NCBI GenBank assembly: GCA_965279075.1
Contig: CBDIHI010000012.1
Location: 1,030,388 to 1,094,387, forward strand
Length of the DNA stretch: 64,000 nt
Reading direction: 5' to 3'
Origin: Burkholderiales bacterium
GTDB lineage: Bacteria > Pseudomonadota > Gammaproteobacteria > Burkholderiales > SG8-39
The position numbers are program-made. This document shows, piece by piece, positions 10,701 to 16,700 of this stretch (its first letter is position 1; every line of letters starts with the position of its first letter).

Positions 10701-13700
10701 CTGCTCAAGCTCGGCTACAAAGTCACCGTGTACGACATCATGTACTTCGGCAACGACTTCCTGCCCAAGGGCAATCCCAACCTCAAGGTCGTCGACGGCG
10801 ACATCCGCGACACGGCCAAGCTCGCCGAGGCCTTCAAGGGCATCGACGTGGTCATCAGCCTGGCCTGCATCTCCAACGACGCGAGCTTCGAGCTCGACGA
10901 AAAGCTCTCGACCAGCATCAACCTCGACGCGTTCGAGCCGATGGTCGTCGCCGCCAAGCAGGCCGGCGTGAAGCGCTTCATCTACGCCTCGTCCAGCTCG
11001 GTCTACGGCGTGTCCGAGGCCCCCGACGTGACGGAAGACCACCCGCTGGTGCCGCTCACCCTGTACAACAAGTACAAGGGCATGTGCGAGCCGCTTCTGT
11101 TCAAACACCAGGCCAAGGACTTCGTCTGCACGGTGATCCGCCCGGCGACGCTGTGCGGCTACGCGCCGCGCCAGCGCCTCGACCTGTCGGTGAACATCCT
11201 GACCAACCACGCCATCAACAACAGCAAGATCACCGTGTTCGGCGGTTCGCAGAAGCGCCCCAACCTGCACGTGCAGGACATGTGCGACGTCTACGAGATG
11301 CTGCTCAACGTGCCCGACGAGAAGATCGCCGGCGAGATCTTCAACGCCGGCTTCCAGAACATGTCGATCATGGACATCGCGCTGACCGCCAAGCGCGTGG
11401 TCCAGGAGATCTTCCCCGAGAAAGGCGACATCCCGATCGTCACCACGCCGACCGACGACATCCGTTCGTACCACGTCAACTCGGACAAGATCCAGCGCGT
11501 CCTCGGCTTCAAGCCGCGCTTCGCCGTCGAGGACGCGATCCGCGACCTGTGCGCCGCGTTCAAGTCGGGCAAGCTGCCCAAGAGCCTGGAGGACACGTTC
11601 TACTTCAACGTCCGCCGCCTCAAAGAGGTGAAAGCGGCATGACGAAGCCGGTCGCGGTCGTCACCGGCGGGGCCGGGTTCATCGGCAGCCACATGGTCGA
11701 CCTGTTCGTGTCGCGCGGCTTCGAGGTGCGGGTCATCGACAACATGGTGGGTGGGCGCGAGGAGAACCTCGCGCACCACAAGTCGGGCGTGGTGCTCGAG
11801 CAGCGCGATGTCCGCAGCTACGCGCCGGACGACGCCCTGTTCCGCGGCGTGAAGTACGTGATCCACTTCGCCGGCATCGGCGACATCGTGCCTTCGATCG
11901 AGCGCCCGATGGAGTACATGTCCGCGAACGTGCAGGGCACGGTGCACATGCTGGAGTGCGCCCGGCACGCAGGCGTGCAGAAGTTCGTGTACGCCGCCTC
12001 GTCGTCCTGCTACGGCCTGGCGAAGACGCCGACCCGCGAGGACCATCCCGTCGAGCCCCTGTACCCGTACGCCCTGTCGAAGTACCAGGGCGAGCAGGCC
12101 GCGTTCCACTGGAACCTGGTGTACAAGCTGCCGGTCAACTCGATCCGCATCTTCAATGCCTACGGGACCCGGTCGCGCACCTCCGGCGCCTACGGCGCAG
12201 TGTTCGGCGTGTTCCTGCGCCAGAAGATCGCCGGCAAGCCCTACACGGTCGTGGGCGACGGGACGCAGTCCCGCGATTTCCTATACGTCACCGACGTGGC
12301 GAGCGCATTCCTCGCCGCGGCGGAAACCGAGCGCACCGGCCGCATCTACAACCTAGGCGCCGGCAACCCGCAGTCGGTCAACCGCCTTGTGGAACTGCTC
12401 GGCGGCGAGGTGACCTACATCCCCAAGCGGCCCGGCGAGCCGGACTGCACGCATGCCGACATCACGCGCATCACCTCCGAACTCGGCTGGAAGCCGCAGC
12501 TGAGCTTCGAGGACGGCGTCGCCCGGATCGTCGCCAACATCGATTACTGGCGCAACGCGCCGTTGTGGGACCCGGCCTCGATCGCCAACGCGACGAGGAC
12601 CTGGTTCGAATTCATGTCGCCGCAAGGAAAAGCCTGATGGACGCCGCGAGCAAGCTGCTTTTTTCGCACAAGATCAAGACCGCCGAGCAGATCCGCGATG
12701 CGATCGGCCCGCGGCCGCGCAAGAAGAAGGTGATCATGTGCCACGGCACGTTCGACGTGGTCCACCCGGGGCACGTCCGGCACCTGCTTTACGCGAAGAC
12801 CAAGGCCGACATCCTCATTGCGAGCCTGACCACCGACGAGCACATCAAGAAGGGCAACATGCGGCCCTACGTGCCGGAGGACCTGCGCGCGGTCAACCTG
12901 GCGGCCCTGGAGATGGTCGACTATGTGGTCATCGACCGCGACCCGACCCCGCTGAAGAACCTCGGCGTGATCAAGCCCGACTTCTTCGCCAAGGGCTACG
13001 AGTACACGGCCGGCGCCGTGAACCCGAAGACGCAGGAGGAGATCGACGTCCTCGAGTCCTACGGCGGCGAGATGATCTTCACGCCCGGCGACATCGTCTA
13101 CTCGTCGTCGGCGCTGATCGAGCTCGCGCCGCCTTCCATCGCCGTCGAGAAGCTGATGACGCTGATGGAGGCCGAGGGCGTCACCTTCAAGGACCTGCGC
13201 GAGGCGGTCGGGAAGATGAAGGGCGTGCACGCCCACGTCGTCGGCGACACCATCGTCGACAGCTACACCTACTGCAGCATGATCGGCGGCATGACCAAGA
13301 CGCCGACGATGAGCGTGCGCTTCGAAAAGAAGGTGGACTACACCGGCGGCGCGGCGGTGGTCGCCAAGCACCTGCGCGCGGCCGGCGCGGACGTCACGTT
13401 CTCGACGGTGCTGGGCAACGACGACTACCGCAAGTTCATCCTCGACGACCTCAACACCTGCGGTGTCCACTGCCAGCCCATCGTCGACGAGACGCGGCCG
13501 ACCACCAACAAGAACGCGATCGTGGCCGAGGGTTATCGCCTGCTCAAGGTGGACACCCTCGACAATCGCTCGATCTCCGACAAGATCGTCGAGCAGCTGA
13601 AGCACCAGATCTCCGATACCCCCGCGCAGGCCGTCGTGTTCAGCGACTTCCGCCACGGCATGTTCAACCGCAGCACGATCCCGCCGCTGATCGCGTCGAT

Positions 13701-16700
13701 CCCCAAGGACGCCTTCCGCGTGGCCGACAGCCAGGTCGCCAGCCGCTGGGGCAACATCCTCGAGTTCGAGGGCTTCGACCTCATCACGCCCAACGAGCGC
13801 GAGGCGCGCTTCGCGCTCGGCGACCAGGACTCTGTGGTCAGGCCGCTGGCGCTCGAACTCCTCAAGCGCTCCAAGTGCAAGACGCTGATCCTCAAGTGCG
13901 GCGATCGCGGCATCATCACCTACCGCGCGAACTCGCCGGTGGATTTCCGCGCCTTCTTCAACATCGAGAGCTTCGCCGACAAGGTGGTGGATGCGGTCGG
14001 CGCGGGCGACGCGCTGCTGGCCTACGCCACGCTCGCGATGGTGGTCACTAAGAACGAGGTCATCGCTTCCATCCTGGGCAACATGGCCGCCGGCATCGAG
14101 TGCGAGCACGACGGCAACTGGCCGGTCACTCCGGAGCTTGTGCTCAAGAAGATCGACAGCCTCGAAAAACAAGTCAAGTACGAGTAAAGCGCCATGCGGG
14201 TAATCGTCGTCGGTCTCGGTGTGCAGGGCCGCAAGCGCCTTGCGGCCGCGGGCAAGGAGGCGGTCGCGACCGTCGATCCGTTCAACCCCGAGGCGCAGTA
14301 CAAGCGGGTCGAGGACGTGCCCCTCGGCACGTACGACGCCGCGCTGCTCTGCATCCCGGACGAGCCGAAGATCGAAATCATCGGCTACCTCCTGCAGAAC
14401 AGGAAGCACCTGCTGGTCGAGAAGCCTCTGTTCGCCGACGACCCCGCGGCGCTGCTGCGCCTGAAGCAGCTCGCCGAGGCCAACCGCACCACCTGCTACA
14501 CCGCGTACAACCACCGCTTCGAGCCGCACTTCGTGCGCATGAAGGAGCTCGTGGATTCCGGCAGGCTCGGCCGCATCTACAGCGTGCGCATGTTCTACGG
14601 CAACGGCACCGCCCGCCTCGTGCGCGATTCCGCCTGGCGCGACCAGGGCGCGGGCGTGCTGCCGGACCTCGGCTCGCACCTGCTCGACACCGCGCTCTTC
14701 TGGTTCGGCCGGCCCTCGGCGCCGTTCAGCGTCCACTCGGCCAACCGGTTCGAGAACCGCGCGCCCGACCATGTGGCCTTCGGCAGCAACGGGTCGCCCG
14801 TGCTGCAGATGGAAGTGGCGCTGCTCTCCTGGCGGAACCACTTCTACTGCGACGTGATGGCCGAGGCCGGCAGCGCCCACATCCAGTCCCTGTGCAAGTG
14901 GGGGCCGAGCACCTTCACCGTTCGCGACCGGAAGCTCCCCAGCGGGCGCCCGGACGAGGAAAGCGTCACCCTTGTCCAGCCGGACCCGACCTGGGAACTC
15001 GAATACCGGCATTTCAAGGAGCTGTGCGCCATGGGTCAGGGCAACATCGACAACGACATCTGGATCAACGAGGTGCTGGGCGGGCTGTGCGCGGCGGTCG
15101 ACCCGGGCAGGGCGGCATGAGCCTCCGGCACGGTCATCCCCAGGCGCGCAAACCTTCCCGCGTCGTGGTCCTCGGCGGCTCGGGCTTCATCGCCGGGGCC
15201 ATGCTGCGCAGGTTCGAGGCCGACGGCATCCCCACGCTCGCGCTGGGCCGCCCGGGCCTGGACCTGCTGGCGCCCGGCGCCGCCGACAGCCTCGCCGCCG
15301 CGCTGCGCGCGGAGGACACCCTGGTGTTCGCCTCCGCCAAGGCACCCTGCAAGGACCTCGCGATGCTGCGCGAGAACCTCGTGATGGCCGAGGCCGTCTG
15401 CAGCGCGCTGCAAAAGCGCCCAGTGGCCCATGTGCTGTACCTCAGTTCGGATGCGGTCTACAAGGACTCGCCCGGGCCGCTCACCGAAGCCTCGTGCGCC
15501 GAGCCCGGCGCGCTGCACGGCGTGATGCACCTGGCCCGCGAGGTCGCCCTGCGACAGGCGCATCCCGGGCCGCTGGCGCTGCTGCGCTCTACGCTCGTGT
15601 ACGGCTACGACGACCCGCACAACGGCTATGGCCCGAACCGGTTCCGCCGCCTGGCCGCAGCCGGCAAGGAGATCGTACTGTTCGGCGAGGGCGAGGAAAG
15701 GCGTGACCACGTCGACGTCGACGACGTCGCCGAGCTTGCCCGCCTGATCGTCGTCCATCGCAGCGCGGGTATCGCGAACGCGGCTTCCGGCGAAGTGGCC
15801 TCGTTCCGCGAGCTGGCCGAGCACGCCGCGGCGGCGTTCGAGCCCCGGGTCGCGGTCAAGGGCAGCCCGCGCAGCGGGCCGATGCCGCACGACGGTTATC
15901 GACCTTTCGACAACAGCGCCGTGCGGGCGGCGTTCCCGGGCTTCAGGTTTAGGTCGTGGCGGGAGGGGCTCGCCAGGGCGCAGGCCCGCCAGGCCACGGA
16001 GGGGAAGTCCTGATGCAACCGGTGATCGGCTTTGTCGGCATGACGCACCTCGGGCTGGTGTCCGGCGTATCCGCGTCCGACAAGGGCTTCAAGGTCGTGT
16101 GCTTCGACCCGGATGCGTCGCGCATCGACCCGATAACCAAGGGCAGGCTCCCGGTGTCCGAGCCGCAGCTCGACGACCTGGTCGCGAAGAACCGGGAGCG
16201 CCTGCAGTTCACGTCCGATCCCGCGGCGCTGGCCGCGTGCGACGTCGTGTACGTGGCGCCGGACGTGCCGACCGACGACCAGGGCAGGAGCGACCTCGGG
16301 CCGATCAACGCGCTGCTGGACAAGGCCTTCGACGCGACGCGCAAGGACGCGGTGATCGTCGTGCTTTCGCAGGTCCCGCCGGGGTTCACCCGCACCAGGC
16401 TGAGGCCCGGCCGCCTCCTCCACTACCAGGTCGAAACGCTCATCTTCGGGCGCGCAGTCGAGCGCGCCCTGTTCCCGGAGCGCTATATCGTCGGCTGCGC
16501 GGATCCTTCCCAGCCGCTGCCGGCGCCCTTTGCCGCGTTCCTCGGCGCGCACGGCTGTCCCGTCCTGCCGATGCGCTTCGAGAGCGCGGAACTGGCCAAG
16601 ATCTCGATCAACATGTGCCTCGTGTCGTCGGTCAGTACGGCGAATACGCTGGCCGAGCTGTGCGAGAAGATCGGCGCCGACTGGTCCGAGATCGTCCCCG

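Follow-up and report, generated by a model that had tools for sequence, protein, structure and literature searches.

A reversed-order HldE-like fusion enzyme in a widespread gene cassette that probably makes a nucleotide-activated heptose

A 64,000-nucleotide stretch of a Burkholderiales genome assembly (GCA_965279075.1, contig CBDIHI010000012.1, forward-strand positions 1,030,388 to 1,094,387), referred to here as the window, carries a gene for a 516-amino-acid (aa) protein that combines a nucleotidyltransferase domain and a sugar kinase domain. The two domains stand in the order opposite to that of HldE, the bifunctional D-β-D-heptose 7-phosphate kinase/1-phosphate adenylyltransferase of Escherichia coli. 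The gene, which we call the target, is a single reading frame with no internal stop codons. A Shine-Dalgarno-like sequence (AAGGAAAA) ends 5 nt upstream of its ATG start codon, and the first base of this ATG is shared with the TGA stop codon of the upstream short-chain dehydrogenase/reductase (SDR) gene, epiB, in a TGATG arrangement that suggests that translation of the target is coupled to that of epiB.

An earlier note on this DNA had placed an HxGH nucleotidyltransferase domain at the N terminus of the protein and a PfkB kinase at its C terminus, and both Pfam and NCBIfam bear this out. The Pfam family CTP_transf_like matches residues 35-144 (E = 2.5e-11; 44.3 bits against a cut-off of 21) and the family PfkB matches residues 201-493 (E = 1.1e-21; 77.9 bits against a cut-off of 25.8), with the characteristic stretches CHGTFDVVHPGHVRHL and DAVGAGDALLA occupying residues 35-50 and 452-462, respectively. 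When the target was compared with HldE of E. coli K-12 by BLASTP, residues 13-123 aligned with HldE residues 322-435 (39% identity) and residues 201-499 with HldE residues 15-305 (23% identity). Because this alignment is not collinear, the swap of domain order, likewise claimed in the note, is real. The note had also allowed that the two halves might be separate genes split by an unrecognized stop codon or frameshift. In all 80 of 80 related genomic loci (L001 to L080, the set used for the synteny counts below), we found that the target homologue was one collinear full-length match, which argues against two genes fused by error, and the continuous frame and an identical protein (P0554) from a 1.23-Mb contig in NCBI/ENA likewise speak against such a split. 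An AlphaFold2 model of the target (mean predicted local distance difference test score, pLDDT, of 85.5; predicted template modeling score, pTM, of 0.73) consists of two folded domains with helices at residues ~167-193 between them.

At the level of curated hidden Markov models, both halves are nearest to the corresponding domains of HldE, at scores far below the cut-offs of those models. Residues 193-500 scored 142.3 bits against TIGR02198 (rfaE_dom_I; cut-off 345), residues 26-162 scored 95.2 bits against TIGR02199 (rfaE_dom_II; cut-off 181.5), and the protein as a whole scored 161.4 bits against the full-length HldE model NF008454 (cut-off 521). The next-best curated families were ribokinase (42 bits) and TagD (TIGR01518; 33.8 bits against a cut-off of 165.4). 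The same three models, HldE, rfaE_dom_I and rfaE_dom_II, matched 60 of 60 diverse family members and did so with the best E-values. No model in NCBIfam (June 2026) claims the target, and because it departs from HldE in domain order and in the STT motif (see below), besides missing the score cut-offs, it falls outside the HldE equivalog. In function, its closest counterpart is HldE acting together with GmhA and GmhB.

The reversed layout proved to be abundant. A word-indexed protein search with the target returned 6,742 proteins at E ≤ 1e-5. The best 120 of these matches are 82-96% identical to it, are all (120/120) annotated with PF01467 followed by PF00294 and come from metagenome-assembled genomes (MAGs) labelled Betaproteobacteria, Chloroflexi, Acidobacteria and Gallionella, where they are named 'PfkB family carbohydrate kinase', 'ADP-heptose synthase' or 'rfaE bifunctional protein'. 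The last of these names is also the IMG label for reversed-order proteins, and copies on RefSeq plasmids carry only a generic name from the Prokaryotic Genome Annotation Pipeline (PGAP). An exhaustive search of 50%-identity representatives gave 1,053 matches at E ≤ 1e-30, a figure that may include canonical HldE; among the best 150 of them, 96 were full length (460-570 aa) and collinear, with identities down to 28%, and the clusters behind some representatives contain members named Pelagibacter or Nanoarchaeota. A second subfamily with the same domain order, ~30% identical to the target, accounted for more than 2,300 matches, and relatives turned up in 307 genomes when one genome per species was scanned with a narrow peptide pattern. 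Judged by these matches, the target is a member of a large, catalogued, unnamed family of reversed-order fusions. CDD has long included a model for this N-terminal placement, 'RfaE_N'.

In neighbour-joining trees, one for each half and both without bootstrap support, canonical HldE, HldA and HldC formed one clade, and the reversed-order proteins lay apart from it. These trees took in four canonical HldE sequences, one stand-alone HldA, partial HldA and HldC sequences from the PDB, and outgroups. Their topology fits one ancient, separate fusion, and a single ancient circular permutation would produce the same trees. Of the separate evolutionary origin proposed in the earlier note, what stands is that each half falls outside the HldE/HldA/HldC clade; these half-by-half trees, a check that the note had put forward together with domain-level annotation, do not distinguish a separate fusion from a circular permutation. 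The rarity that the note implied is contradicted by more than 6,700 homologues. The layout is thus common, and we found no characterized reversed-order member in the literature on CDP-heptose and HldE, on heptose together with cytidylyltransferase, PfkB and transaldolase, or on reversed-order HldE.

The N-terminal half has as its best sequence match in the PDB a Burkholderia pseudomallei chain deposited as 'Putative cytidylyltransferase' (5x9q; 52 bits), which we take to be HldC, followed by human ethanolamine-phosphate cytidylyltransferase (ECT; 45 bits) and the cytidylyltransferase domain of Fom1 (41 bits). In alignments of 60-97 diverse family members, H43, G45 and H46 of its HPGH signature (HAGH in E. 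coli HldE) are invariant, P44 is nearly so, and R84 and D95 are conserved. Heptose nucleotidyltransferases (HENases; Tang et al. 2024) carry a motif (F/L)XXGXSTT, in which Arg at position 5 is associated with promiscuity toward nucleoside triphosphates, as summarized in PMC11573728. This motif is absent from the target and from the family consensus. In its place, where E. coli HldE has FEDGCSTT, the target has FTPGDIVYSSS, with an aromatic residue and no Arg before the Ser/Thr triplet, and the loop at residues 151-155 has low pLDDT in the AlphaFold2 model.

The kinase half is closest to HldA of Burkholderia cenocepacia in both sequence and fold. HldA (4e84) was its best sequence match in the PDB (50 bits) and also the top Foldseek match to the kinase half of the AlphaFold2 model (E = 6e-23; TM-score, 0.83-0.85; 22-23% identity), with the next PfkB kinases at ~1e-16, about seven orders of magnitude behind. 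The residues conserved in the same 60-97 members include D208, G237-G238, N386 to E389 and G455-A-G-D458; within and beside the NXXE motif, E389 is invariant and E387 and R391 are nearly invariant. The Burkholderia pair HldA and HldC thus provides the nearest solved structures for the two halves of the target, although there the two are separate proteins, and 5x9q carries the R-STT promiscuity motif that the target lacks.

The target lies within an operon-like run of same-strand genes (Table 1) that, from the SIS-domain gene through to a thiamine pyrophosphate (TPP) enzyme gene, are separated by gaps or overlaps of only -4 to +33 nt. An isomerase of the GmhA type and a phosphatase of the GmhB type lie directly upstream, so that the four-enzyme set for nucleoside diphosphate (NDP)-heptose synthesis occurs together. 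The phosphatase fell below the cut-offs of both GmhB models, with the β-specific model giving the higher score. Because the kinase is HldA-like in sequence and fold and the adjoining phosphatase is nearer to the β-specific GmhB model, we infer that the product would be the β-anomer.

Table 1. Features of the target and of its gene cassette in the window, with supporting evidence and the number of the 80 related loci in which the gene was found
Feature	Coordinates	Strand	Evidence or remark	Loci
SIS-domain protein, divergent GmhA-like isomerase	8709..9290	+	Pfam SIS_2; TIGR00441 (gmhA) 62.6 bits, cut-off 209	58
HAD-IIIA phosphatase, GmhB-like	9309..9848	+	NF006506 (β) 118 bits, cut-off 178; NF050049 (α) 75 bits	59
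Transaldolase, TIGR02134 type	9861..10595	+	350.6 bits, cut-off 282	59
SDR epiA, Cj1427-like	10629..11642	+	phmmer; Foldseek	73
SDR epiB, GalE/WbpP-like NDP-sugar epimerase/dehydratase	11639..12637	+	Stop overlaps target start	75
Shine-Dalgarno-like sequence of target	12624..12631	+	Read from sequence	
Target, nucleotidyltransferase-kinase fusion (reversed HldE-like)	12637..14187	+	Translation without stops; Pfam; NCBIfam; identical to P0554	
Nucleotidyltransferase domain, residues ~26-165, HldC/HldE-domain-II-like	12712..13131	+	TIGR02199; PDB 5x9q; 39% identity to E. coli HldE 322-435	
HPGH (H43-P44-G45-H46), HxGH nucleotide-binding signature	12763..12774	+	Family alignments A1 and A2	
FTPGDIVYSSS, residues 148-158	13078..13110	+	Family motif F[ST][PS]G[DE][IV]V[YF]SS[ST]	
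Variable helical linker, residues ~166-192	13132..13212	+	Gap-rich in family alignment; AlphaFold2 helices 167-179 and 184-193	
PfkB kinase domain, residues ~193-500, HldA/HldE-domain-I-like	13213..14136	+	TIGR02198; Foldseek	
PfkB NXXE motif, N386-E387-R388-E389	13792..13803	+	Family alignments	
PfkB GAGD motif, G455-A-G-D458, with catalytic Asp	13999..14010	+	Aligns with GAGD of E. coli HldE and HldA	
Gfo/Idh/MocA oxidoreductase	14194..15120	+		74
SDR epiC, RmlD/GDP-fucose-synthase-like, putative keto-reductase	15117..16013	+		66
NDP-sugar dehydrogenase (UDP-glucose/GDP-mannose dehydrogenase family)	16013..17302	+	TIGR03026 216 bits, cut-off 189.8	70
GT2 (GtrB/ArnC-like) gene, then GtrA-family gene	23650..24963	+	Pfam; same order in L083	
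Class I S-adenosylmethionine methyltransferase	26619..27320	+	Pfam; usually directly after cassette, here displaced by lineage-specific insert	56

Among the remaining genes of the cassette, epiA is the most informative about substrate. Against the PDB, its best phmmer match was Cj1427 of Campylobacter jejuni (6vo6; E = 1.5e-35, 126 bits, with the runner-up at 88 bits), and Foldseek likewise placed Cj1427 first (6vo6/6vo8; 32% identity), working from a model of mediocre confidence (pLDDT, 71.6). Cj1427 is an α-ketoglutarate-recycling GDP-heptose C4-dehydrogenase and the only characterized NDP-heptose C4-dehydrogenase (PMC10680097). We regard this match as the strongest independent sign that the cassette would act on a nucleotide-linked heptose. 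An identical copy of the epiA protein also exists (P0421). PDB sequence searches with the Gfo/Idh/MocA enzyme, the NDP-sugar dehydrogenase, the transaldolase, epiB, epiC and epiD returned generic relatives only.

When the cassette proteins were searched by tblastn against the 80 loci, gene order was kept in most of them, at identities typically of ~45-89% and across at least 8 phyla. The carriers belong to the Beta-, Gamma-, Alpha- and Deltaproteobacteria, Acidobacteriota, Nitrospirota, Verrucomicrobiota, Planctomycetota and Chloroflexota. Azospirillum cavernae K2W22B-5 and Sulfidibacter corallicola M133 (L028, L033) are cultured carriers. That an order of some 10 genes is kept across phyla suggests horizontal spread of one functional unit. 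A scan of window positions 8000-27900 for promoters and terminators gave no more than expected by chance.

Taking this evidence as a whole, we think it probable that the target, together with the isomerase and phosphatase of the cassette, provides a four-step NDP-heptose route that feeds dedicated tailoring enzymes rather than the core of lipopolysaccharide (LPS). In the first step, the GmhA-like SIS isomerase would convert sedoheptulose 7-phosphate, the supply of which the cassette transaldolase probably raises, into heptose 7-phosphate. The C-terminal PfkB domain of the target, if it acts as HldA and HldE do, would then phosphorylate the C1 hydroxyl to give the β-1,7-bisphosphate, the GmhB-like HAD phosphatase would strip the 7-phosphate, and the N-terminal HxGH domain would nucleotidylate the remaining 1-phosphate, most likely with AMP from ATP and possibly with CMP or UMP. 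The resulting NDP-heptose would pass to the co-transcribed tailoring enzymes, namely, the Cj1427-like C4-dehydrogenase, the other SDRs, the Gfo/Idh/MocA oxidoreductase, the NDP-sugar dehydrogenase and the methyltransferase. In this lineage, the product would probably go on to a module of GT2, GtrA and membrane transferase proteins that places the modified sugar on polyprenyl phosphate for envelope glycosylation.

The capsular GDP-heptose pathway of C. jejuni offers a parallel for the later steps, since there too an NDP-heptose is made, oxidized at C4, epimerized and reduced, with epiA nearest to its C4-dehydrogenase. Of its early enzymes (GmhA, HddA, GmhB and HddC), HddA is a kinase of the GHMP type and HddC a nucleotidyltransferase of a different family, and the route works with the α-anomer, whereas the cassette has an HldA-like PfkB kinase and an HldC-like nucleotidyltransferase. 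The cassette has in addition an NDP-sugar dehydrogenase and a Gfo/Idh/MocA enzyme, and its conserved part lacks a cupin-type C3/C5 epimerase. The product of the C. jejuni pathway is a GDP-α sugar (PMC10680097).

Several observations weigh against a heptose route of this kind. Against the curated cut-offs for HldE, GmhA and GmhB, the scores of all four core enzymes fall well short, which means that a related but different sugar phosphate could be the substrate. The nucleotidyltransferase motif is unlike (F/L)XXGXSTT of the known heptose enzymes and lies in a poorly modelled loop, and the membrane transferase downstream is frameshifted in the window. Finally, two members of ~30% identity (in L084 and L085) stand in clusters without SIS and transaldolase genes, so that the superfamily as a whole would not be confined to heptoses and the substrate of the second subfamily may not be one.

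With the same chemistry otherwise, the N-terminal domain might be a true cytidylyl- or uridylyltransferase and the product a CDP- or UDP-heptose. The fold is that of cytidylyltransferases, the PDB scores of 5x9q, human ECT and Fom1 lie close together, the family motif, which has an aromatic residue before the Ser triplet, differs from that of the ATP-specific E. coli HldE, and, as Tang et al. 2024 are summarized in PMC11461863 and PMC11573728, heptose nucleotidyltransferases can use CTP or UTP. Set against this, the N-terminal half scored 95 bits with the adenylyltransferase domain model of HldE and 34 bits with TagD, and in the neighbour-joining tree its sister group is the HldE/HldC clade, ECT and Fom1 branching outside both. 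Since these two results favour ATP, we consider ATP the most likely donor; because the motif is divergent, CTP or UTP might serve instead, and the missing Arg of the (F/L)XXGRSTT promiscuity motif is a further point against them. On balance, a CDP- or UDP-specific enzyme seems to us the less likely case, at perhaps one chance among several.

It is unlikely, although worth weighing, that the cassette makes a sugar other than a heptose, such as an octose built by the transaldolase from a pentose phosphate in the manner of the lincosamides. The lincosamide octose pathway (LmbR/N/P/K/O and LmbM/L/Z/S) employs the transaldolase LmbR, the isomerase LmbN, a kinase, the phosphatase LmbK, the nucleotidyltransferase LmbO, the epimerase LmbM, the dehydrogenase LmbL and the oxidoreductase LmbZ, and the cassette has the same eight functional types, among them a dedicated transaldolase, an NDP-sugar-type dehydrogenase and an NAD(P) oxidoreductase, when functional types and not sequences are compared (PMC12945683, Table 1). 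A transaldolase is unusual in a heptose cluster, all of the core enzymes diverge from the heptose equivalogs, and TPP enzymes able to add C2 units recur nearby. The transaldolase of the cassette, however, lies above the equivalog cut-off of TIGR02134, which we take to represent the housekeeping pentose-phosphate-pathway transaldolase of Staphylococcus and Coxiella. Moreover, L024, L043 and L076 have an intact cassette with no nearby transaldolase by tblastn, and the adjacent SDR, epiA, is nearest to a heptose-specific dehydrogenase. The kinase and nucleotidyltransferase families differ as well, LmbP being a GHMP-type kinase and LmbO belonging to a different nucleotidyltransferase family. Lastly, the conserved cassette lacks an aminotransferase and spans many phyla, whereas the lincosamide genes form an actinomycete antibiotic cluster.

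That the target is instead a permuted HldE orthologue, the housekeeping ADP-heptose synthase for the LPS inner core, is very unlikely in our estimation. Like HldE, it holds the PfkB and HxGH folds in one chain, with both halves nearest to the HldE domains; genes for GmhA-like and GmhB-like partners adjoin it; and some sources name its homologues 'ADP-heptose synthase'. It nevertheless reaches only 40-50% of the equivalog cut-offs, belongs to a separate clade in both domain trees and differs from HldE in its order and in both nucleotidyltransferase motifs. Its context is also one of tailoring and not of the LPS core, with a Cj1427-like dehydrogenase, an NDP-sugar dehydrogenase and a methyltransferase in the same cassette; the window genes that were scanned include no GT9 heptosyltransferase, and no SDR of the cassette reaches the HldD cut-off (TIGR02197; best score 120 bits against 274.6). 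The family occurs, furthermore, in MAGs labelled Chloroflexota SAR202 and Nanoarchaeota, in which, to our knowledge, heptose-containing LPS is not expected. An artefact, in the form of merged neighbouring genes or a decayed pseudogene, has next to no chance of explaining the target even though two other genes in the window are frameshifted, given its continuous frame, the identical P0554, the thousands of collinear homologues of ~516 aa, the conserved catalytic residues and the confident two-domain AlphaFold2 model.

Returning to the NDP-heptose route, we would suggest only tentatively a broader picture in which the reversed-order enzyme is the entry point of a horizontally spread cassette of ~10 genes that makes an undescribed modified NDP-heptose for polyprenyl-phosphate delivery to the cell envelope in many environmental phyla. 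The sugar might be oxidized to a uronic acid, carry a methyl group, or be branched or lengthened by C2 units through the recurrent TPP enzymes, and its carrier might be CDP or UDP instead of ADP. Delivery of this kind would resemble Gtr/Arn-type polyprenyl-phosphate glycosylation. Both here and in L083, the genes after the cassette include those for GT2, GtrA and a large membrane protein, the GT2 and GtrA genes forming a putative polyprenyl-phosphate sugar transfer and flipping module; where distant family members occur, their clusters have genes for GT2, LPG_synthase_TM and PMT_2. The differences are that the donor here would be a modified NDP-heptose and that the membrane transferase is frameshifted in the window. 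L083, the closest relative (96% identical), has no insert, and after its cassette come genes for the methyltransferase, an SDR, GT2, GtrA and a membrane protein of 542 aa.

LPS, capsules, glycoproteins and antibiotics are all built with NDP-heptoses, and ALPK1 senses ADP-, CDP- and UDP-heptose as innate-immune agonists. The existence of a second, very widespread fusion that would make such sugars, outside the HldE clade and linked to a conserved tailoring cassette, suggests a heptose-derived sugar of the envelope in carriers that include Nitrospira, Verrucomicrobia, Acidobacteria and many Proteobacteria. The enzyme would also offer a natural test of whether domain order matters in a pathway whose phosphatase step falls between the two active sites. 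With thousands of copies in the databases, the inversion is in itself nothing unusual; what is of moderate interest is the uncharacterized cross-phylum pathway and its product.

Another sugar-modification locus, an 11-gene operon, is required for the bradyrhizose O-antigen of photosynthetic Bradyrhizobium (PMC4743980). We compared the cassette with it through the gdh primer peptides DAFLPYK and DMSLRTYF and found no convincing cassette match in any of the loci, including the Bradyrhizobium MAG L047 and L073, and the link was set aside.

The more distant members of the superfamily have neighbours of several kinds. In the second subfamily, L084 and L085 (P0327 and P0409) have Arn-like clusters of SDR, DegT aminotransferase, nucleotidyltransferase-kinase, LPG_synthase_TM, GT2 and PMT_2 genes, and other distant members adjoin genes for SIS proteins, SDRs, pyruvate-dehydrogenase-E1-like α/β pairs, radical-SAM enzymes and NUDIX hydrolases. 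These neighbours imply that the superfamily as a whole supplies lipid-linked glycosylation of the envelope and handles more than one sugar. In the window, an E1-like TPP α/β pair lies at 29649-31726 (+), and such a pair was found near the cassette in 19-27 of the 80 loci. It also adjoins a distant family member on a plasmid of Azospirillum oryzae (L087) and may there extend a keto-sugar by C2 units.

In the window, the cassette is parted from its usual methyltransferase by an insert (17302-23621, +) that encodes a methyltransferase, two SDRs, a TPP enzyme, an FkbM-like methyltransferase and two open reading frames (ORFs) without a Pfam match. By tblastn scan, the insert is complete only in L004 and L010 and partial in L029. 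Its TPP enzyme, at 19924-21708, is acetolactate synthase-like; a TPP enzyme of this type, YerE, makes branched CDP-sugars.

Frameshifts, which may stem from errors of assembly or from genuine decay, affect two genes of the window. The membrane protein gene after the GT2 and GtrA genes (24971-26608, +) lies in three frames, with shifts near 25343-25386, 25484-25507 and 25923, and has an intact 542-aa counterpart at 10521-12149 of L083, so that it is either a pseudogene or the product of assembly errors. An RlmJ/RsmJ-like rRNA methyltransferase gene (7298-8144, +) lies in two frames, with the shift between 7435 and 7440, and an intact 281-aa version is present in the 96%-identical relative contig L082.

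Further downstream, two methyltransferase genes are followed on the opposite strand by genes for a NUDIX hydrolase and a flippase-like LPG_synthase_TM protein (28035-29503, -). LPG_synthase_TM is also found beside the ~30%-identical members in L084 and L085, and NUDIX in L087. A glycan island continues across 36000-52400. Its minus strand holds a DUF6044 gene (38200-40467) and an ORF at 40467-42860 without a Pfam match, and its plus strand holds two large ORFs without a Pfam match (43988-48303); the island also includes a GT2 gene (49054-50034), a Wzx-like flippase gene (50169-51320) and methyltransferase genes.

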